In this document: positions 3,800 through 36,904 of the stretch, one piece after another
Layout: each line of letters starts with the position of its first letter
Position numbering within the stretch: the stretch's first letter is position 1
Source of the DNA: a virus
Lineage: Duplodnaviria; Heunggongvirae; Uroviricota; Caudoviricetes
Virus record (IMG/VR): IMGVR_UViG_2872158770_000003
Length of the DNA: 37,298 nt
Direction: 5' to 3' (one strand)
The notes under the pieces: generated by a model
What the model was told of the DNA's origin: nothing
Database searches by the model: none
Seen by the model: the letters and a program-made list of their open reading frames with translations, nothing else
Position numbers and translations under genes: made by a program

Positions 3800-4010
3800 A
3801 AACGGTTTGCGGGAAAAGGAGAGTTAAGTAGAATTGCAGCGGGTGCTTGAGGCTATCTGTCTCAGGCATGAACACCAAAAGGCAGATAGAGAAAAGCCCC
3901 AGTTAACATTACGCGTCCGGCAAGACGCTTAACATTAATCTGAGGCTCAATCTATGAACGGCAAATCTAGGTTAGCCTCTTACGTGCCGAAAGGCAAGGA
4001 GAAGCAGGCT

Positions 4011-4166
4011 ATGAAGCAGCAAAAGGCGATGTTAATCGCCCTGATCGTCATCTGTTTAACCGTCATAGTGACGGCACTGGTAACGAGGAAAGACCTCTGC
4101 GAGGTACGAATTCGAACCGGCCAGACGGAGGTCGCTGTCTTCACAGCTTACGAACCTGAGGAGTAA
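4011..4166 (+). CDS. hokD: Hok/Gef-family type I toxin (51 aa), HokD/RelF-like
   Basis: Translation MKQQKAMLIALIVICLTVIVTALVTRKDLCEVRIRTGQTEVAVFTAYEPEE has the Hok signature (TM helix then C-x-[VI]-R and EVAAF-like motif); followed by a strong terminator. Confidence 0.75.
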   Translation: MKQQKAMLIALIVICLTVIVTALVTRKDLCEVRIRTGQTEVAVFTAYEPEE

Positions 4167-4383: not shown

Positions 4384-4647
4384 TTGATGAAAATCGAAGA
4401 ATTACGTGAAATTTTTAGTGAAGATGGCCTCTATACTGTGCGCGTTGAGAATGGCGCTATTGTCAGCCACTGCCGTATTAAATGTTTACAGTCTCAACAA
4501 AGGAAGAGTGGAGCTGCGTTAATTCATTTTGTGGATGGGCTTGTGACGGATGGTTTTATTTCGCGTGCAAATGAATTTGTCACATCGTTGCCGTCTCTGA
4601 AAGAAGCTGGGATTAAGGCTGGTTTTTCTGCTTTTGAAGATGAGTGA
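4384..4647 (+). CDS. hypothetical protein (about 86 aa; ATG at 4387)
   Basis: ORF in the position of the small gene that follows hokD in K-12 Qin-type prophages (recalled gene order); identity not verifiable. Confidence 0.4.
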   Translation: MMKIEELREIFSEDGLYTVRVENGAIVSHCRIKCLQSQQRKSGAALIHFVDGLVTDGFISRANEFVTSLPSLKEAGIKAGFSAFEDE

Positions 4648-4713
4648 ATTCATCTACAATTCAGCGCAGGGCTGAACCCCTGTTGAGTAACACTGTGCCA
4701 CCGGAGAAAGCCG

Positions 4714-4992
4714 ATGGCGCAAAATTCCAGACTACACAATTCTGATAATTCAGCCGTCTTTGCCAGCAGGCACGGGCGGCGCTCTCACGCATTTAAATCT
4801 GATTGGTACCAGCATCCCCCATGCACTGAAGAACAGGCCGAATGGCTCATTCAGTGTTACCGCAGGCGCGGATGCGAGGTTAAAAAAGCCCTTAGCCTCG
4901 ACTACCGTCACTGGATAATCTCCGTCAGGCTCCCTTACTCCGAACGGCCAACGCGTCCGTCCCGCACATTCCAGCAACGGATCTGGAGGTAA
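4714..4992 (+). CDS. hypothetical protein (92 aa), possibly a split-off N-terminal part of the next gene
   Basis: ORF ends 1 nt before the DUF968-like ORF begins in another frame. Confidence 0.3.
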   Translation: MAQNSRLHNSDNSAVFASRHGRRSHAFKSDWYQHPPCTEEQAEWLIQCYRRRGCEVKKALSLDYRHWIISVRLPYSERPTRPSRTFQQRIWR

Positions 4993-4993
4993 T

Positions 4994-6052
4994 GTGCGGG
5001 TATTACTTCGACCTGTTCTGGTACCGGAACTCGGTCTGGTTATCGTTAAGCCAGGCCGTGAATCAATGTCAGCATTCCATAACGGCAGAATACTGGTGGA
5101 GCCGGAACCAAAAAGCATGCGTAATCTGCCGTCCGGGGTCGTTCCTGCCGCTCGCCAGCCGCTGGTGGAAGACAAAACATTGCTGCCGTTTTTCAGTAAC
5201 GCACGGGTGATTCGTGCTGCTGGTGGTGCTGGTGCATTGTCTGACTGGCTGTTGCGCCATATTAAATCCTGCCAGTGGCCACACGGCGATTATCATCACA
5301 GCGAAACCGTCATTCACCGTTATGGTACCGGCGCAATGGTGTTGTGCTGGCACTGCGACAACCAGCTGCGTGACCAGACATCCGAATCACTCGAGCAACT
5401 TGCTCATCAAAACCTGTCAGCATGGATGATTGACGTCATCGGTCACGCAATAAGCGGTACGCAGGAGCGTGAATTATCTCTGGCTGAATTATCCTGGTGG
5501 GCGGTCCGCAATCAGGTGGCGGACGCGCTACCGGAAGCGGTATTACGTCGTTCGCTGGGGTTGCGTGCGGAAAAAATTCGCTCTGTGTACAGTGAAAGCG
5601 ACATCATACCGGGAGAGCAGACAGCCACCAGCATACTGAAGCAGCGCACAAAAAATATTGCGTTACTGCCTCACGTCCACCAGCAACAGAACCCACCACA
5701 GGAAAAGACGGTGGTCAGCATTGCCGTTGATCCGGAGTCACCGGCTCAGTATCTCCAGCGCCAGAAATCACAACGGGAAGAGATGCCTGTATACACGCGC
5801 TGGGTAAAAACGCAGAAATGCATGACGTGTGGCAATCAGGCAGATGATCCGCATCACATCATTGGTCATGGACTGGGAGGGATGGGAACAAAGGCTGATG
5901 ATTTGTTTGTTATTCCGTTATGCCGTAAATGCCGTAACGAACTACATGCCGGAGTAAAAGATTTTGAAGAGAAACACGGCAGTCAGCTGTTGTTGCTGAT
6001 TCGTTTTTTAATGCACGCGAGAAATTCGGGTGTTCTGAAGTGGAAAGCATAA
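4994..6052 (+). CDS. YdfU-like (DUF968) prophage protein with C-terminal HNH-like zinc motif (352 aa)
   Basis: Length and position (upstream of Q) match YdfU-type proteins; C-terminus CMTCGNQADDPHHIIGHG...CRKCRNELH resembles an HNH/zinc finger. Confidence 0.6.
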   Translation: MRVLLRPVLVPELGLVIVKPGRESMSAFHNGRILVEPEPKSMRNLPSGVVPAARQPLVEDKTLLPFFSNARVIRAAGGAGALSDWLLRHIKSCQWPHGDYHHSETVIHRYGTGAMVLCWHCDNQLRDQTSESLEQLAHQNLSAWMIDVIGHAISGTQERELSLAELSWWAVRNQVADALPEAVLRRSLGLRAEKIRSVYSESDIIPGEQTATSILKQRTKNIALLPHVHQQQNPPQEKTVVSIAVDPESPAQYLQRQKSQREEMPVYTRWVKTQKCMTCGNQADDPHHIIGHGLGGMGTKADDLFVIPLCRKCRNELHAGVKDFEEKHGSQLLLLIRFLMHARNSGVLKWKA

Positions 6053-8922: not shown

Positions 8923-8998
8923 GGCCCTTTAGCTCAGTGGTGAGAGCGAGCGACTCATAATCGCCAGGTCGCTGGTTCAAATCCAGCAAGGGCCACCA
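8923..8998 (+). tRNA. ileZ: tRNA-Ile2 (anticodon CAT, lysidine-type)
   Basis: Cloverleaf folded by hand: acceptor GGCCCTT/AAGGGCC, anticodon loop CTCATAA, T-loop TTCAAAT, encoded CCA; close to E. coli tRNA-Ile2 (recalled). Confidence 0.85.
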
Positions 8999-9005
8999 TC
9001 ACATA

Positions 9006-9082
9006 CCGCCATTAGCTCATCAGGAAAGAGCGCCAGCCTTCGAAGCTGGCTGCGCGGGGTTCAAGTCCCCGATGGCGGTCCA
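9006..9082 (+). tRNA. tRNA-Arg (anticodon TCG)
   Basis: Acceptor CCGCCAT/ATGGCGG, anticodon stem CCAGC/GCTGG with loop CTTCGAA, T-arm CGGGG-TTCAAGT-CCCCG, encoded CCA. Confidence 0.85.
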
Positions 9083-9095
9083 TTATCTGCATCAT

Positions 9096-9172
9096 GCGTT
9101 GTTAGCTCAGCCGGACAGAGCAATTGCCTTCTAAGCAATCGGTCACTGGTTCGAATCCAGTACAACGCGCCA
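9096..9172 (+). tRNA. tRNA-Arg (anticodon TCT, reads AGA/AGG)
   Basis: Acceptor GCGTTGT/ACAACGC, anticodon stem ATTGC/GCAAT with loop CTTCTAA, T-arm CACTGG-TTCGAAT-CCAGT, encoded CCA. Confidence 0.85.
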
Positions 9173-9217: not shown

Positions 9218-9435
9218 TCTCACAATTCAGACGGTTGACAGTTGTCTGTTTTGCGGGGAGTTTGTTAAAAGAAACTGGCATGGTGAATCCCCCTGTGCGG
9301 AGGGGCAATCAGCGAGTAGGTATATGGGATAATCGCGGATTCAGGTGCTGGTACTGAATTCACCGGGAGGCACCCGGCATCATGCAATGGCACATAGCGC
9401 CACTCTCCAGCCCTCTCCGGAGGGGCTTTTCTGTG
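9218..9435 (+). repeat. module A of a diverged tandem duplication (TTGACA hexamer, conserved hairpins, terminal terminator)
   Basis: Shares collinear blocks with module B: CTCACAATTCAG, TTGACAGTTG, TTTGTTAAAA, GCATGGTGAATCCCCCTG, GCGGAGGGGC, CACCGGGAGGCACCCGGCA, CCCCTCTCCGGAGGGG + T-run. Confidence 0.6.
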
Positions 9436-9685
9436 CCGGATACATCACAGTTTCTGGAACCTTAGGTACTACAGTATCAGTCAGGGTGCTATATTTTCAG
9501 ATGTGATGAAAGCCTGTCAGCAGGCAGGGCGTATCGGAAATGACCCAGTAGAGAAAACGTTGACTCAGATACCGGTGCTGAGTTACCGGGAAACCGGCAT
9601 CACATGACCGCTATCCTTCCAGGCCCATCCGCTCCGGTGGGCCTTTTTACTGCAGAAAACAGGTTCCCCGTTAAATGCTATGTTG

Positions 9686-9919
9686 CTCACAATTCAGTAA
9701 GTTGACAGTTGCCTGTCAGACTGGGCATTTGTTAAAAAAATTTCGCATGGTGAATCCCCCTGAGCGGAGGGGCGACTGGTGACGGTATAATCTCTGATTA
9801 TCAAAACGAGAATGACGCGGGTTTAGTGGCACCGGGCTGAACTCACCGGGAGGCACCCGGCACCATGTGCATGATGATACAGATACGCGGCTTTAGCCCC
9901 TCTCCGGAGGGGTTTTCTT
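9686..9919 (+). repeat. module B of the diverged tandem duplication; contains a perfect TATAAT at 9786-9791
   Basis: Same ordered blocks as module A about 467 bp downstream; preceded by terminator hairpin GGCCCA-TCCGCTCCGG-TGGGCC + TTTTT (9622-9649). Confidence 0.6.
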
Positions 9920-10147
9920 GTGGGCAAAAAAAGCCCGCGCTGGGAGACGCGGGCGGCAAGGAATAAACAATAAAACGTGAAGTAATATTTCAGCTGGCGA
10001 ATAATACCCCATAGTAATCACTCTGCGCAACTGCGCGGTCTTTTTCGAATTGCGGGCTGTCGTCTCTCTTCTGCCATTGTCCTGTAACTTCCGGACTTCA
10101 GCCCGCTCCTTATTTTACTCACAATATTATCCCGGCCGGGAGGATTC

Positions 10148-14890: not shown

Positions 14891-16160
14891 AACAGCTCCT
14901 CATAGGCACTCAGTGGTCGATGTTCCACCTGACTGACCTGCTGCCAGAGCGGGGCGTGATGCTCCGGCACTGTCTGCCAGCCAGACGATGCTGAACAGAG
15001 GCGATGTGAGGCCACCAGTTTCTCATTACTGTAGATCCGCAACTCGTCATCCAGCGATATTCGTATCGATACCGGCTGACCACACAGCGCTTCGGGAACG
15101 CTGTAACGATTACCACCAACCTCGATATAGCTGTCCCAGGACACATGGCGGATATCGAAGTAACTGGTATCGAAGTCTGTATCCGGTAACGGCTGCAGAT
15201 GTTCCTGCTCCAGCGCGAAGCGCTGTTCCGGCGTTTCTTTGAACTGGCGAAGCTCCCGTTTGTCAGCCACATCGGCTATCCATTGCTCCAGTTGTTGATT
15301 GACATGAGTGAAGCTGTCGAACCTGCGGTACCGGACGAAGAAGTTCTCCTTGAGGTATTTCACCATCCGCTCAACCTTACCTTTTGTTCTGGCCCTGCGT
15401 GGACGGCATGCCCGTGGCAGGAAGTTATAGTGGTCAGCCAGCAACAGGAATCCGGAGTTGAACACGACTTTCCCGTTGTTATTCTTCAGCACCGCAGCCT
15501 TCTGGTTATCAACCAGCACCGTTTTCACACAACCACCGAAGTAGCGGAAGGCGCGAACCAGTGATTCGTAGGTATGCTCAGCATCCTGTTTTGGTGCGGC
15601 GAAGACATGGAAGCTGCGGGAGAACCCCAGCGTATTAACCGCAAAGTTAACTTTGCACCGTTGCCCGGCAACCTCCACCTCAACTTCGCCCCAGTCATGC
15701 TGGAGCTGGTATCCAGGCTGAGTTTCGAAGCGAACTGTTCTTTTTGACGGACGCATTTTACGTTTGGGCTGGATGTAGTAACGCAGCATGGAACGTCCGC
15801 CCGTATAACCCATTGCCTTAATCTCCGCGAAGATAACCTCGCTATTCCAGACATTCTCTGCCAGGCGCATGTCGATGTAATCCATAAACGGTTTCAGCTT
15901 AACCATTTTGTGGCGGGTCTTTCTGGCTGGCGGTTCAGGGTATTTGAGGTAGCGTCTGACCGTCCGTTCAGAGCAACCAATCTGAGTCGCAATATCGACG
16001 ATGTACGCGCCCTGCTGGCGCATTTGCTTTATCATGTAAAAGTCCTCTCTGCTCAGCATGTTGATGTCCTTTCTGGTGTGAGAACCTTAAGGAAACAACA
16101 TGTTGGGTGGAGCGGACAATCCAAATGGCGAATTACCGTCTTATATCACTGGCGCTGACA
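14341..16160 (-). mobile_element. IS21-family element, partial: one terminus at 16160, other end removed by IS600
   Basis: istA then istB on minus strand; high-coordinate terminus reads ...CTGACA, placed where homology to FII begins at 16161; istB cut at the IS600 boundary. Confidence 0.6.
14887..16059 (-). CDS. istA: IS21-family transposase IstA (390 aa)
   Basis: N-terminal HTH and DDE integrase-core-like region; 4-nt overlap with istB as in IS21-family operons. Confidence 0.8.
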   Translation of the reverse strand: MLSREDFYMIKQMRQQGAYIVDIATQIGCSERTVRRYLKYPEPPARKTRHKMVKLKPFMDYIDMRLAENVWNSEVIFAEIKAMGYTGGRSMLRYYIQPKRKMRPSKRTVRFETQPGYQLQHDWGEVEVEVAGQRCKVNFAVNTLGFSRSFHVFAAPKQDAEHTYESLVRAFRYFGGCVKTVLVDNQKAAVLKNNNGKVVFNSGFLLLADHYNFLPRACRPRRARTKGKVERMVKYLKENFFVRYRRFDSFTHVNQQLEQWIADVADKRELRQFKETPEQRFALEQEHLQPLPDTDFDTSYFDIRHVSWDSYIEVGGNRYSVPEALCGQPVSIRISLDDELRIYSNEKLVASHRLCSASSGWQTVPEHHAPLWQQVSQVEHRPLSAYEELL

Positions 16161-22450: not shown

Positions 22451-23194
22451 ATGACACAGACTGAATCAGCGATTCTGGCACATGCCCGGCGGTGTGCGCC
22501 TGCGGAGTCGTGCGGCTTCGTGATAAGCACGCCGGAGGGGGAGCGGTATATCCCTTGTGTGAATATTTCCGCAGAGCCGGAGGCGTATTTTCGTATCGCA
22601 CCGGAAGACTGGCTGCGGGCAGAGATGCAGGGGGAGATTGTGGCACTGGTCCACAGTCATCCCGGTGGGCTGCCCTGGCTGAGCGAGGCTGACCGGCGGT
22701 TGCAGATAAAAAGCGCACTGCCCTGGTGGTTGGTCTGCCGGGGTGACATTCACAAATTCCGCTGTGTGCCACATCTGACAGGACGGCGCTTTGAGCACGG
22801 GGTGACGGACTGTTACACGCTGTTCCGGGATGCTTATCATCTGGCGGGGACTGAAATGCCGGATTTTCATCGCGAGGATGACTGGTGGCGCAACGGTCAG
22901 AACCTTTACCTGGACAATATGGCGGTCACCGGCTTTTACCGGGTGCCCCTGTCCTCTGCACAGGCGGGCGATATTCTGCTGTGCTGCTTTGGTGCTTCGG
23001 TACCGAACCATGCCGCCATTTACTGCGGCAACGGTGAGCTGCTTCACCATCTGCCTGAACAACTGAGTAAACGGGAGAGGTATTCCGAAAAATGGCAACG
23101 ACGAACGCATTCAGTCTGGCGTCACCGCCACTGGCACGCATCTGCCTTCACGGGGATTTACAACGATTTGGCCGCCGCCTTAGCCTGTATGTGA
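22451..23194 (+). CDS. K: tail tip assembly protein K (JAB/MPN plus NlpC/P60-like); start uncertain
   Basis: MTQTESAILAHARRCAPAESCGF...VHSHPGG (JAMM-like) then ...GVTDCYTLFRDAYHLAG (NlpC/P60-like Cys); 103-bp overlap with I as in lambda. Confidence 0.75.
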   Translation: MTQTESAILAHARRCAPAESCGFVISTPEGERYIPCVNISAEPEAYFRIAPEDWLRAEMQGEIVALVHSHPGGLPWLSEADRRLQIKSALPWWLVCRGDIHKFRCVPHLTGRRFEHGVTDCYTLFRDAYHLAGTEMPDFHREDDWWRNGQNLYLDNMAVTGFYRVPLSSAQAGDILLCCFGASVPNHAAIYCGNGELLHHLPEQLSKRERYSEKWQRRTHSVWRHRHWHASAFTGIYNDLAAALACM

Positions 23195-23772
23195 ACACGG
23201 CAGCGGAAGCCATTCGCGCCCTGTCGATGCAGATGCCGGGCTTTCGCCGTCAGATGAACGAAGGCTGGTACCAGATACGTATTGCCGGTTATGACACGGC
23301 ACCGGAGGCGGTGTACGCCCGTCTTCACGAACAGCTGGGTGAGGGAACGGTCATCCACATTGTGCCGCGACTGGCCGGGGCCGGAAAGGGTGGACTGCAG
23401 ATTGTGCTGGGGGCGGCAGCCATCGTGGGCTCTTTCTTCACTGCCGGGGCATCAATGGCGTTATGGGGTTCAGCCCTGGCAGCCGGTGGTTTTTCTGCCA
23501 CCACGATGCTGTTTTCACTTGGAGCCAGCATGATTCTGGGCGGTGTGGCCCAGATGCTGGCCCCGAAGGCAAAAACACCGGATTACCGCGCAACGGATAA
23601 CGGCAGACAGAACACGTACTTTTCCTCACTGGATAACATGATTGCCCAGGGGAACCCGATGCCGGTGCCTTACGGGGAAATGCTGGTTGGCTCCCGCCGT
23701 ATATCCCAGGACATCAGCACCCGTGATGAAGGCGGGGGCGGAAAGGTCGTGGTTATCGGGCGGCAGGGGTAA
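23092..23772 (+). CDS. I: tail tip assembly protein I (226 aa)
   Basis: MATTNAFSLASPPLARICLHGDLQRFGRR... and C-terminal QNTYFSSLDNMIAQGNPMPVPYGEMLVGSRRISQ match lambda gpI. Confidence 0.85.
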   Translation: MATTNAFSLASPPLARICLHGDLQRFGRRLSLYVNTAAEAIRALSMQMPGFRRQMNEGWYQIRIAGYDTAPEAVYARLHEQLGEGTVIHIVPRLAGAGKGGLQIVLGAAAIVGSFFTAGASMALWGSALAAGGFSATTMLFSLGASMILGGVAQMLAPKAKTPDYRATDNGRQNTYFSSLDNMIAQGNPMPVPYGEMLVGSRRISQDISTRDEGGGGKVVVIGRQG

Positions 23773-23985
23773 AAAGAATAAAAAAATCCCGCAGTGATCG
23801 CGGACAGGAACTGCGGGAGAGTTACGAAGATTAAGTGTAAGGAATTATTCTTATATCACGACAAAAAAATTAACGCAGAGAAATTATACGCGCCACAGTC
23901 AGTTTGTGAAAATGTGAAGATATTCAGAATTTTTATGCCATTACCGGTTTTAACCAACAGGATTATCGGTGGGCATGAAAGAAAA

Positions 23986-24018
23986 CCCCGGTATCTGCTG
24001 ATACCGGGGTTTCTCTTT
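23986..24018. terminator. strong hairpin with flanking T-runs in the I-J intergenic insert
   Basis: 9-bp stem CCCCGGTAT/ATACCGGGG, loop CTGCTG, followed by TTTCTCTTT; the opposite strand also has a T-rich tail. Confidence 0.55.
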
Positions 24019-24115
24019 AGCATGGCAGAAATGTGTTTCATGCTTTTCGGGCGAAGGATATCCGACTTCTGTACGGAATGGCAAGTGGCGGTTAATTTAT
24101 TCAGGGGAAGGCTGT

Positions 24116-27100
24116 ATGGGAAAAGGTGGCGGTAAGGCACACACGCCTCGTGAGGCGAAGGATAATCTCAAATCCACGCAGATGATGAGCGTGATTGATG
24201 CGATTGGTGAGGGACTGATAGAAGGTCCGGTGAAGGGACTGCAGAGTATCCTGGTGAACAAAACCCCGCTGACGGACACGGACGGTAATCCCGTGATACA
24301 CGGTGTGACGGCGGTCTGACGCGCCGGGGAGCAGGAGCAGACACCACCGGAAGGCTTTGAGTCCTCCGGTGCTGAAACCGGACTGGGCGTGGAAGTGACG
24401 AAGGCAAAACCGGTGACGCGCACCATTACGTCCGCGAACATTGACCGCCTGCGGGTTACCTTCGGGGTGCAGTCACTGGTGCAGACCACGTCAAAGGGTG
24501 ACCGAAACCCGACATCCGTCCGCCTGCTGATTCAGTTACAGCGTAACGGTAACTGGGTGACAGAAAAGGATGTCACCATTAACGGCAAGACCACCTCGCA
24601 GTTTCTGGCGTCGGTGATTCTGGATAATCTGCCTCCCCGTCCTTTTAACATCCGGATGGTCCGGGAGACAGCGGACAGCACCACGGACCAGCTGCAGAAT
24701 AAGACGCTGTGGTCGTCATACACCGAAATCATCGATGTGAAACAGTGCTACCCGAACACGGCCATTGTGGGGCTGCAGGTGGATGCGGAGCAGTTCGGCG
24801 GCCAGCAGATGACGGTGAACTACCATATCCGCGGTCGCATCATCCAGGTGCCGTCAAACTATGACCCGGAAAAACGCACGTACAGTGGTATCTGGGACGG
24901 TAGCCTGAAACCGGCATACAGCAACAATCCGGCCTGGTGTCTGTGGGACATGCTGACTCACCCGCGCTACGGCATGGGAAAACGTCTGGGGGCGGCGGAT
25001 GTGGACAAGTGGGCGCTGTATGCCATCGGGCAGTACTGCGACCAGACGGTCCCGGATAGTTTCGGGGAGACCGAGCCGCGGATGACCTTCAATGCGTACC
25101 TGGCACAACAGCGTAAGGCATGGGACGTGCTCAGTGATTTCTGCTCGGCGATGCGCTGTATGCCGGTATGGAACGGCCAGACGCTGACGTTTGTTCAGGA
25201 CCGCCCGTCGGATGTGGTGTGGCCGTACACCAACAGCGATGTGGTGGTGGATGATAACGGCGTGGGTTTCCGCTACAGCTTCAGTGCCCTGAAGGACCGG
25301 CACACGGCGGTGGAGGTGAATTATACCGACCCGCAGAACGGCTGGCAGACCTCCACGGAACTGGTGGAAGACCCGGAAGCCATACTGCGCTACGGACGCA
25401 ACCTGCTGAAGATGGACGCGTTCGGCTGTACCAGCCGCGGTCAGGCCCACCGTGCCGGACTGTGGGTGATAAAGACCGAACTGCTGGAAACGCAGACGGT
25501 GGATTTCACGCTCGGGTCTCAGGGGCTGCGGCACACACCCGGTGACATCATTGAAATCTGTGATAACGACTATGCCGGGACCCTGACCGGCGGACGTGTC
25601 CTGTCCATTGATGCTGCCACCCGCACTCTGACGCTGGACCGTGAAGTGACACTTCCGGAGACCGGTGCCGCCACGGTGAACCTGATTAACGGCAGCGGTA
25701 AGCCGGTGAGTGTGGACATCACCGAACACCCCGCGCCGGACCGGATACAGGTCAGTACCCTGCCTGATGGTGTGGGGACTCTCCCTGCCGTCACTGCGCC
25801 GTCTCCTGTTCCGCTGTGTCTCCGTCCGGGAAAACACGGACGGCACCTTTGCCATCACGGCGGTGCAGCACGTACTGGAAAAAGAAGCCATCGTGGATAA
25901 CGGTGCCCGCTTTGAGCCGCAGTCAGGTTCCCTGAACAGCGTCATCCCACCGGCAGTGCAGCACCTGACGGCCAGTATCTGGCGCAGGCGAAATGGGACA
26001 CGCCGCGGGTGGTGAAGGGTGTGCGCTTCAGTCTGCGCCTGACCAGTGGTAAGGGAACGGATGCCAGACTGGTGACCACCGCCATCACCGCAGACACGGA
26101 GCACCGTTTCAGCGGCCTGCCGCTCGGGGAATACACCCTGACGGTGCGGGCGATAAACAGCTATGGCCAGCAGGGTGAACCTGCCACCACCACCTTCCGG
26201 ATTGCCGCACCGGCAGCACCGTCGCGGATTGAGCTGACGCCGGGCTATTTTCAGATAACCGCAACGCCGCATCTTGCCGTTTATGACCCGACGGTACAGT
26301 TTGAGTTCTGGTTCTCGGAAAAGCGGATTGCGGATATCAGGCAGGTTGAAACCAGCGCCCGCTATCTTGGCACGGCGCTGTACTGGATAGCCGCCAGTAT
26401 CAATATCAAACCGGGCCATGATTATTATTTTTACGTTCGCAGTGTGAACACCGTTGGCAAATCGGCATTCGTGGAGGCTGTCGGTCGGGCGAGCGATGAT
26501 GCGGAAGGTTACTTGGATTTTTTCAAAGGAGAGATAGGGAAAACACATCTGGCTCAGGAGCTGTGGACGCAGATTGATAACGGTCAGCTTGCGCCTGACC
26601 TGGCTGAAATCAGGACGTCCATTACGGATGTCAGCAATGAAATCACGCAGACTGTCAATAAGAAACTGAAAGACCAGAGTGCGGCAATCCAGCAGATACA
26701 GAAGGTTCAGGTTGATACAAATAATAATCTGAACAGCATGTGGGCTGTGAAGCTGCAACAGATGAAGGACGGACGCCTTTATATTGCGGGTATCGGTGCC
26801 GGTATTGAGAATACGCCAGCAGGAATGCAGAGTCAGGTGCTGCTGGCGGCAGACAGGATTGCGATGATTAATCCTGCGAATGGCAACACAAAGCCGATGT
26901 TTGTTGGTCAGGGCGATCAGATATTCATGAACGACGTGTTCCTGAAACGCCTGACGGCTCCCACCATTACCAGCGGCGGTAATCCTCCGGCATTTTCCCT
27001 GACACCGGACGGAAAACTGACCGCTAAAAATGCAGATATCAGTGGCAGTGTGAATGCGAACGCCGGGACGCTCAACAATGTCACAATTAATGAGAACTGT

Positions 27101-27550
27101 CAGATTAAGGGGAAACTGTCAGCCAACCAGATTGAAGGCGATATAGTCAAAACAGTGGGTAAGGCTTTTCCGCGGGACTCCCGGGCACCGGAGCGGTGGC
27201 CATCAGGGACCATTACCGTCAGGATTTATGACGATCAGCCTTTTGACAGGCAAATTGTTATTCCGGCGGTGGCATTCAGCGGCGCTAAACATGAGCGGGA
27301 GAATAACGATATTTATTCGTCATGCCGCCTGATAGTACGGAAAAACGGTGCTGAAATTTATAACCGTACCGCGCTGGATAATACGCTGATTTACAGTGGT
27401 GTTATTGATATGCCAGCTGGTCGCGGCCACATGACGCTGGAGTTTTCGGTGTCAGCATGGCTGGTGAATAACTGGTATCCCACAGCAAGTATCAGCGATT
27501 TGCTGGTTGTGGTGATGAAGAAAGCCACCGCAGGCATCAGTATCAGCTGA
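24116..27550 (+). pseudogene. J: central tail fiber / host specificity protein J, inactivated by one in-frame stop and two frameshifts
   Basis: Lambda J-like sequence over the full length, but in-frame TGA at 24317-24319 and frame changes near 25775 and 25975 break it into three ORFs (67, 503 and 513 aa). Confidence 0.85.
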
Positions 27551-36344: not shown

Positions 36345-36904
36345 TTAATTGGATGATCACCACCTCTGACGCCAATCAGGGAGGTGGTGAGACGTACAGG
36401 GTTGGCGTAACCGGTCATCACAAAACCCGGCGCGGATTTCTCCGCCCCTGCACGCCCCACCATAATGCGAATGTGGCAATGCTTAACGCAAAAAAAACCG
36501 CAAACGCGGCTATGCGTTGTGATGTTATCCGAGACGCCAATCCCGACAACCGATTTTGCGGTTGTGTGAGGAATATAGCCCCGGAGAACAAAAACTGTCA
36601 ACGGGCAAAAAAATTTCCGTTATCAGGAATGTATAAAATTAAAGCGATCGAGCAAAAAATCCTTTCTGCAAAACTAAAAAAGATTTCAATAAAATCAGGC
36701 AGTTAAAAACACGGAAAAACGGTATAAAAAAGCGCCTCAAAATCCTGTTTTTTCTTTCAGATACAATGTCTTATTGCATTTTTTAAAACATGTCAGTGTG
36801 GTACATGGATATCGATACCATCGCCAATTATAAACTGGGCGGTGCACAGCAACATGATAGCGTACGCCTCGATCCGTGGGTGTTTATGTTCTCAGCAGGA
36901 TATC

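Follow-up and report, generated by a model that had tools for sequence, protein, structure and literature searches.

A probable small RNA gene of the PasB / EcOnc22-24 family beside a terminator-like hairpin between prophage tail genes I and J

The spacer between tail genes I and J

The window analysed here is a whole stretch of 37,298 nucleotides from a Caudoviricetes virus (IMG/VR record IMGVR_UViG_2872158770_000003), and coordinates refer to it unless another genome is named. The tail assembly gene I lies on the plus strand at 23191-23772, where it is the 3' neighbour of the small RNA terminator described below; its longest ORF begins at 23092, and the start adopted here follows the RefSeq annotation of strain CFT073, whose I gene (positions 4419-5000 of the region 1359141-1369483) maps to 23191-23772. 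The TAA stop codon of I occupies 23770-23772, and the ATG of J is found at 24116, preceded by a ribosome-binding site that can be read in the sequence (GGGGAAGG; 24104-24118 including the ATG). This leaves a gap of 343 bp (23773-24115) with a GC content of 41.7%, versus 59.9% in I and 56.5% in J, and these coordinates and figures bear out the original prediction of an AT-rich insert separating the two genes. The I-proximal half (23773-23936) has 35.4% GC, and the J-proximal half (23937-24115) 47.5%. The accompanying statement that I and J are almost contiguous in lambda has to be corrected: there, I ends at 15444 and J starts at 15505, and the gap of 60 bp already contains a hairpin.

The J frame starting at this ATG (24116-27550) aligns end to end with J of CFT073 at 76.5% identity, and it is interrupted by in-frame stops at 24317, 25898 and 25913. 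The J gene of the window is a pseudogene, and because of these stops the prophage is probably defective for the tail tip. The CFT073 copy of J is intact. In that genome (1359141-1369483), the RefSeq locus tags skip from C_RS06865 (I) to C_RS06875 (J), a feature in the spacer having seemingly been dropped.

A predicted small RNA gene in the I-proximal half

The best promoter-like site in the region is a motif match on the minus strand, with a -35 box TTCACA (23910-23905) and a -10 box TATAAT (23888-23883) separated by 16 nt. It agrees with the sigma-70 consensus at 11 of 12 positions and is a candidate promoter (23883-23910) for a gene ending at a predicted intrinsic terminator ~95 nt downstream (~65 nt to the terminator stem). 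Three promoter-like sites are present in the region as a whole, versus 0.6 +/- 0.9 expected by chance (0.6 per 900 bp). Upstream of the -35 box lies an A/T-rich stretch (GCATAAAAATTCTGAATATC, 23911-23936, minus strand) that is kept in all promoter-bearing spacer types and is possibly an UP element. Its outer end, 23936, is also the end of the pasB module common to Stx1a and Stx2c phages, whose matches stop at spacer position 164-167.

The terminator (23780-23817, minus strand) is formed by the arms CCCGCAG (23817-23811) and CTGCGGG (23794-23788) followed by AUUUUUUU, and has an alternative 6-bp inner hairpin at 23804-23788. On the minus strand this repeat runs into AUUUUUUUAUUCUUUUU, and the U-run stops a few bases from the stop codon of I. 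The 7-bp repeat had been noticed before, at 23798-23827, which is 10 nt off its true arms; the promoter and the minus-strand terminator role of the repeat had been missed, and the second hairpin, described below, had been taken as the chief feature of the spacer. Stem and U-run are kept in 13 of 14 aligned alleles, the exception being a single stem substitution (CCCTCAG), and the loop varies. As the stem is nearly invariant, it offers no covariation support.

The predicted primary transcript would thus be ~97 nt long, from G23876 to the U-run at ~23780. It has AAG-AAU-AAU repeats and, close to its 5' end, a U-run; the middle (UUCCUUACACUUAAUCUUCGUAACUCU) is mostly unpaired and leads into the terminator hairpin. 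The 5' region folds unlike from one allele to another. Two alleles seemed to show compensatory changes in a closing helix that would pair the 5' GCGUUA with a UAACGC ahead of the terminator; since all four combinations occur, this helix is not supported.

The spacer has close counterparts in a published family of prophage sRNAs. PasB was described in enteropathogenic E. coli (EPEC) E2348/69 by Pearl Mizrahi et al. (2021, PMC8550237), where it is an 83-nt RNA of prophage PP6 encoded on the minus strand (NC_011601 1466343->1466261) between E2348C_1436 and E2348C_1437 (PMC8550237 Table S6). We found that these flanking genes are I (ending at 1466255) and J (starting at 1466496), with a spacer of 240 bp. 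A second form, PasB-2 (Zhu, Shabalina and Storz, 2026, 10.64898/2026.05.13.724894), given as C27A in that preprint, corresponds to the form carried by the PPompW phages.

We built a covariance model from E2348/69 PasB, PasB-2, the Sakai Sp15 sequence and three intermediate alleles, leaving out the allele of the window. It finds 23876-23780 on the minus strand over its full length (model positions 1-97; 70.5 bits, E=5e-12), the next best match in the 37-kb window having E=0.025. The sequence correspondence is therefore full length, although the allele and the 83-nt PasB agree at only 64 of 89 aligned positions (72% identity), and their longest identical word is 25 nt. The northern probe used for PasB (AATCCCGCAGTGATCGCGGAGCT; PMC8550237 Table S6) matches 23785-23807 with three mismatches, located at the probe end. 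The location is also that of the family, namely the I-J spacer, antisense to the tail operon, with the terminator beside the I stop, and the same layout is seen in E2348/69 and in Sakai Sp11, Sp14 and Sp15. As judged from motifs, so are the promoter and the Rho-independent terminator with a long U-tail.

On these grounds (covariance model, alignments and probe match), we assign 23780-23876 (minus strand) to the pasB family as allele A. Across the 14 aligned alleles, the promoter, the 5' end, the A-R-N repeats, the AUCUU(C) block and the terminator correspond, and the promoter hexamers are the same or nearly so in E2348/69, PPompW and other promoter-bearing spacers, whereas those of Sakai allele C diverge. 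Allele A resembles E2348/69 PasB in its slot, strand, promoter hexamers and spacing and length class, as well as in the 5' GCGUUA, the U-run, the A-R-N repeats, the UCCUU and AUCUUC blocks, the 3' arm of the terminator and the U-tail. The segment that aligns with the 83-nt PasB annotation is 23862->23780. Judged by the -10 box, transcription should start ~14 nt upstream of the 5' end given in the PasB annotation, which points either to processing of the RNA or to a small error in placing the promoter.

A further set of relatives is provided by EcOnc22, EcOnc23 and EcOnc24, which are Hfq-CRAC peaks in the Sakai prophages Sp15, Sp14 and Sp11, respectively (Tree et al., 2014; PMC4104026 Table S2). 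Their coordinates place them in the I-J spacers of these prophages, antisense to the tail operon. The coordinates refer to an older version of the genome, and we calibrated the shift on Esr41 (EcOnc14) at ~128-169 nt; with this shift, the peaks would sit on the PasB-like RNA body and not on the neighbouring hairpin. The Sakai spacers carry allele C, with the AAUCUUC block and the same terminator as the window allele, but differ from it in the body and near the promoter, the two alleles agreeing at 76 of 103 aligned positions. The RNA of the window very probably corresponds to EcOnc22-24 of enterohaemorrhagic E. coli (EHEC) Sakai. Overall, 23773-23936 very likely constitutes a self-contained minus-strand sRNA gene, an allele of the PasB / EcOnc22-24 family, situated beside a terminator or insulator hairpin module at 23937-24115. 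The family, its location and its dependence on Hfq are already published; the new elements are an allele that is common but uncharacterised, and the view of the slot as a mosaic given below.

Concerning expression, northern blotting detects PasB at the expected size, and its stability depends on Hfq (PMC8550237). In RNA-seq, it reaches baseMean values of 482 and 1082 versus 2-15 for the flanking tail genes, and it drops by log2 6.8 and 2.4 in the hfq mutant (PMC8550237). Such abundance amid nearly silent tail genes is as expected for a gene expressed in the lysogen from its own promoter. Similarly, EcOnc22 was detected as a ~85-nt northern band and is destabilised in an hfq mutant (PMC4104026). 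PasB takes part in 37 RIL-seq interactions, always as the second RNA of the chimera (PMC8550237); among the partners listed in that source are bfpB, bfpI, ftsZ, galE, ler, perB, rplX and an intergenic RNA adjacent to pasA, the ftsZ chimeras mapping to the ftsA-ftsZ junction and the start region. No targets of EcOnc22, EcOnc23 or EcOnc24 were found in the literature. The PasB seed has been proposed to lie in the single-stranded stretch directly upstream of the terminator (10.64898/2026.05.13.724894).

From these homologues, we infer that the RNA of the window is an Hfq-dependent, trans-acting base-pairing sRNA, and its expression and targets are to be read in the same light. In the lysogen, where the tail operon is silent, its own promoter would drive a transcript of ~97 nt, perhaps shortened to ~83 nt by trimming. 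Hfq would make contact via the U-tail at the 3' end, the U-rich stretch near the 5' end and the AAG-AAU-AAU (A-R-N) repeats, and the single-stranded UUCCUUACACUUAAUCUUCGUAACUCU just 5' of the terminator would pair in trans with mRNAs of the host and of its islands.

The RNA is also fully complementary to the I-J part of the late tail mRNA, and it could act mainly in cis. The RNA, or the convergent transcription that makes it, would either lower the expression of J, lom and stf or itself be silenced by late transcription on induction, as a safeguard or timing device for the tail-tip genes. In every spacer type examined, the gene is antisense within the tail operon beside the I stop, and this position is kept while the body varies, as such a role would have it. 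However, PasB forms Hfq-dependent chimeras with many unlinked mRNAs, always as RNA2, which is the signature of a trans-acting sRNA, the stored RIL-seq table contains no chimeras with E2348C_1436 or E2348C_1437, and the tail operon is essentially silent in lysogens rich in PasB. Moreover, complementarity in cis is perfect whatever the sequence, so pairing with the tail mRNA does not account for the conserved AUCUU(C) and A-R-N blocks. We consider a mainly cis-acting RNA unlikely, and retain action in trans as the preferred reading.

If so, the target set of allele A is probably partly different from that of PasB, as suggested by the stretch before the terminator, where the proposed seed is only partly common to the two: they share AAUCUUC and UCCUU, but AAUCUUC is followed by CGUAACUCU in the window and by CAUUUGUCUGU in PasB. 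The terminator loop of the window allele is also 5 nt longer. RNAduplex comparisons of three alleles with the ftsZ, galE and ler segments from RIL-seq gave z values between -2 and +2. An ungapped complement search paired nt 50-65 of PasB with the ftsZ leader and with ler over 8-9 nt, and the window allele has neither match; matches this short carry little weight either way. DicF of the Qin prophage is an Hfq-dependent sRNA that represses ftsZ. It resembles PasB in being a prophage-encoded Hfq sRNA, and RIL-seq chimeras of PasB are likewise found at the ftsA-ftsZ junction and the ftsZ start; however, the two have no sequence relationship and differ in genomic context, and the link with ftsZ is putative and concerns allele B only.

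No Rfam family reaches the gathering threshold in 23500-24400 (the whole window was searched at gathering level), and at E<=10 only chance-level matches to terminators appear; the lack of a match in the spacer is explained by PasB not being an Rfam family. Other prophage sRNAs do not fit the spacer. AgvB (RF02702) and AsxR (RF02703) sit at the PR' moron site and are not matched, and Esr41 (RF02676) and STnc100 (RF02076) have no gathering-level match there. The svsR sRNA of the NC-SV prophage is located at the 3' end of cI, the 66-nt HnrS corresponds to EcOnc10-12 in Sp9, Sp10 and Sp12, and the lambda sRNAs PreS, LPR2 and 6S are located elsewhere. The papers searched on uropathogenic E. coli, among them the main text of a CFT073 Ribo-seq preprint, contained no transcript or small-protein evidence for the spacer locus.

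The second hairpin and the J-proximal module

Between the pasB promoter and J lies a 13-bp hairpin (23983-24012) with T-rich runs on both sides, terminator-like on both strands. Its G+C-rich core consists of the 10-bp arms CCCCGGTATC (23986-23995) and GATACCGGGG (24000-24009), which AAA/TTT extend to 13 bp, enclosing a TGCT loop; the downstream T-rich runs are TTTCTCTTT on the plus strand and TTTTCTTTC on the minus strand. A hairpin flanked by T-runs on both strands had been reported at 23986-24018, and it is indeed there. This element belongs to a longer J-proximal module (23937-24115) that we call long, and whose plus-strand fold also includes an imperfect long hairpin (AUGCC..UACCGGU / AUCGGUGGGCAU; 23932-23979).

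The 60-bp I-J spacer of lambda (15445-15504) carries, just before J, the hairpin AAACCGCC-TGCG-GGCGGTTT followed by TGTCATTT, an element of the same kind as the second hairpin of the window but unrelated to it in sequence. Other phages have a short module in this place, with GGCACC-loop-GGTGCC followed by TGTTGTTTTTGTG and a loop that differs among phages. Three unrelated sequences (lambda, short module and long module) thus present a sense-oriented, T-followed hairpin just before J, and the occurrence of non-homologous hairpins in the same place in lambda and the short module is why the second hairpin is best read as a terminator or insulator. We conclude that it is in all likelihood the ordinary intercistronic terminator-like element of the I-J junction, and that pasB was inserted between I and this element. 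By its form, the hairpin would stop polymerases without Q modification ahead of J, and late, Q-modified transcription would read through it; the long version would also block antisense transcription from entering the pasB promoter.

The long module might in addition encode a second sRNA, for example a ~75-nt minus-strand RNA running from a promoter at 24084-24055 to the hairpin at 23983-24012, which would make this a tandem or convergent locus; possibly, a second RNA could instead be a 3' fragment of the late transcript. Several features are compatible with such an RNA. Both strands fold far better than shuffled sequences, with z of -6.5 (minus strand, 23972-24050) and -7.1 (plus strand, 23930-24022) and none of 200 dinucleotide shuffles as good, and the hairpin is followed by U-rich tails on both strands. 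A speculative promoter-like site, TTGCCA-18-TATCCT (24055-24084, minus strand; 9/12 matches), lies at a suitable distance, the minus-strand RNA would bear AAAGAGAAA before its terminator, and a different moron site of these prophages is known to harbour convergent sRNA pairs (PMC4104026). Nevertheless, the site is a poor match, such as chance would produce at 0.6 per 900 bp, and the plus strand yielded no promoter. The module has no Rfam match, none of the literature searched reports a second RNA, and the similarly placed hairpins of lambda and the short module are explained without any RNA gene.

The long module is present in 1446 of 5426 E. coli genomes, and 1442 of the 1451 records with at least 95% identity to it have at least 99%; diverged copies were not found even by sensitive search. 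Among 110 copies on viral contigs there are eight variants; the two linked changes in one of them are not compensatory, and the sole change in a paired region breaks a pair. No compensatory changes were found in the 23932-23979 hairpin among these 110 copies. Because the copies are nearly identical, conservation cannot separate function from recent spread, nor can it test the structure. We regard a second RNA gene as doubtful and keep to the reading of the second hairpin as a terminator or insulator. As to the origin of the long module, a mobile or diverged repeat does not fit, for it is essentially one near-identical sequence, located at I-J in every examined copy (CFT073, PPompW), and the sodC moron described below has no homology to it.

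Of the functions that the original prediction had offered for the insert, a small RNA locus thus applies to the I-proximal half, and an insulator or terminator is the best reading of the second hairpin. The same prediction would have been undermined if this spacing and sequence were standard in phages with an intact J and gave no transcript. Junction comparison shows that many prophages whose J is intact, those of CFT073 and the PPompW phages among them, do carry this spacer as a standard feature, but homologous spacers do have demonstrated transcripts, by northern blot, RNA-seq and Hfq crosslinking (PMC8550237; PMC4104026).

Distribution and mosaic build of the spacer

The window allele is represented by 650 records at 95% identity or more, with 587 further records at 90-95% that include Stx1a and Stx2c phages and O157 strains. 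At the same threshold of at least 95%, allele B accounts for 925 records and allele C for 530, and alleles A, A', B and C each occur in roughly 10-17% of complete E. coli genomes. RefSeq annotates none of these alleles. The exact form of the window is present in 613 records and is that of extraintestinal pathogenic strains (CFT073, S88 and ATCC 25922). The only published survey of PasB covered bacterial genomes with a word size of 28 and >75% coverage (10.64898/2026.05.13.724894), and could not recover this allele, whose longest word in common with PasB is below that size. In a scan of one genome per species, the only occurrence outside E. coli was in E. albertii, besides apparent contaminant contigs and chance matches. 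Near-identical pasB spacers are present on short contigs labelled Parendozoicomonas haliclonae, Streptomyces flavalbus and a Clostridiales MAG, which most likely represent contamination by E. coli prophages.

The spacer appears as a mosaic. Body alleles A and B are found with both the short (75 bp) and the long (179 bp) J-proximal module in all four combinations: A with long in the window, B with long in the PPompW phages, B with short in E2348/69, and A with short in JLK-2012 and PhiR5_1. Alleles A, B and C lie between a common promoter and terminator, the promoter region of Sakai allele C being divergent.

A further component is found in O157 EC4115 and in E. albertii, where pasB and J are separated by a sodC gene that has a terminator of its own and shares the strand of pasB; an example of this superoxide dismutase moron is positions 1080-1930 of NC_011353 1206300-1209300, and three further loci were seen. 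In the sodC-bearing spacers, pasB is downstream of sodC, its TATAAT promoter is replaced, and homology starts at CTCTG(A/C)GTTAAT, that is, at the predicted start site, which supports the 5' boundary of the sRNA. In these loci, pasB may derive from the sodC transcript or have a different promoter. The presence of sodC also indicates that the I-J junction is a moron site.

Lambda-type morons are promoter-gene-terminator units located between late genes (Juhala et al., 2000, as cited in PMC4104026) and are expressed in the lysogen. Judged on its predicted parts, the sRNA gene of the window is similar, being an autonomous unit between late genes with its own promoter and terminator and a lower GC content than its neighbours, but it differs from them in that the cargo is a non-coding RNA and not a protein. 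The moron originally put forward thus holds in this structural sense, as a promoter-RNA-terminator unit.

A moron encoding a small protein is, on the contrary, very unlikely. The 94-aa minus-strand frame (23856-24140) thought to be the only ORF of the spacer is accompanied by a 113-aa plus-strand ORF with a GTG start (23794-24135) and by a 44-aa ORF, and the minus-strand sodC gene at I-J in other prophages provides a precedent for a protein in this slot. Yet neither the 94-aa nor the 113-aa ORF, the two tested, has a Pfam match, and both are absent from the short spacer type. The former begins inside J on the opposite strand, has no Shine-Dalgarno sequence, and crosses both the 13-bp hairpin and the pasB promoter, and the latter runs antisense through the entire sRNA gene and into J. 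The NCBI pipeline annotates nothing in the spacer, in >1,600 E. coli genomes that carry it. As an RNA gene, the locus would represent a widespread regulatory gene overlooked by genome annotation.

These combinations allow a bolder picture, which we advance tentatively and hold to be less probable than not: the I-J junction would be a cassette slot for sRNAs, in which a fixed promoter and a fixed terminator/Hfq module flank an exchangeable body, allele A being an uncharacterised regulator whose regulon differs from the one of EPEC PasB, and the long module maybe specifying a second RNA. In that case, recombination at the conserved ends would swap seeds, and hence host targets, independently of the J-proximal module and of sodC. 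If the seed of allele A does differ from that of EPEC PasB, which contacts the ler, perB, bfp and ftsZ mRNAs, prophages would bring different post-transcriptional inputs from one and the same slot. For phage biology, the I-J junction emerges as a moron site, for an sRNA and for sodC, beside a hairpin that is kept in position and not in sequence. These data extend a known family and leave its current understanding unchanged.

Elsewhere in the window, probes for PasA, PasC and PasD have no match. The second-best match of the covariance model mentioned above (E=0.025; 9926-10015, minus strand) consists mostly of a terminator (CCCGCG..CGCGGG plus U7) converging on a copy of STnc100 at 9716-9925, and the two may be a pair of convergent sRNAs of the type found downstream of PR' in EHEC prophages. 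This copy is one of two in tandem, the other being at 9249-9438; STnc100 is related to PasD (10.64898/2026.05.13.724894). Like the STnc100 copies, the remaining RNAs of the window are identified at the Rfam gathering level, and include a sok antitoxin RNA (3841-4016), three tRNAs (8923-9169) and, on the minus strand, a C4 antisense RNA beside isrK (36380-36565).
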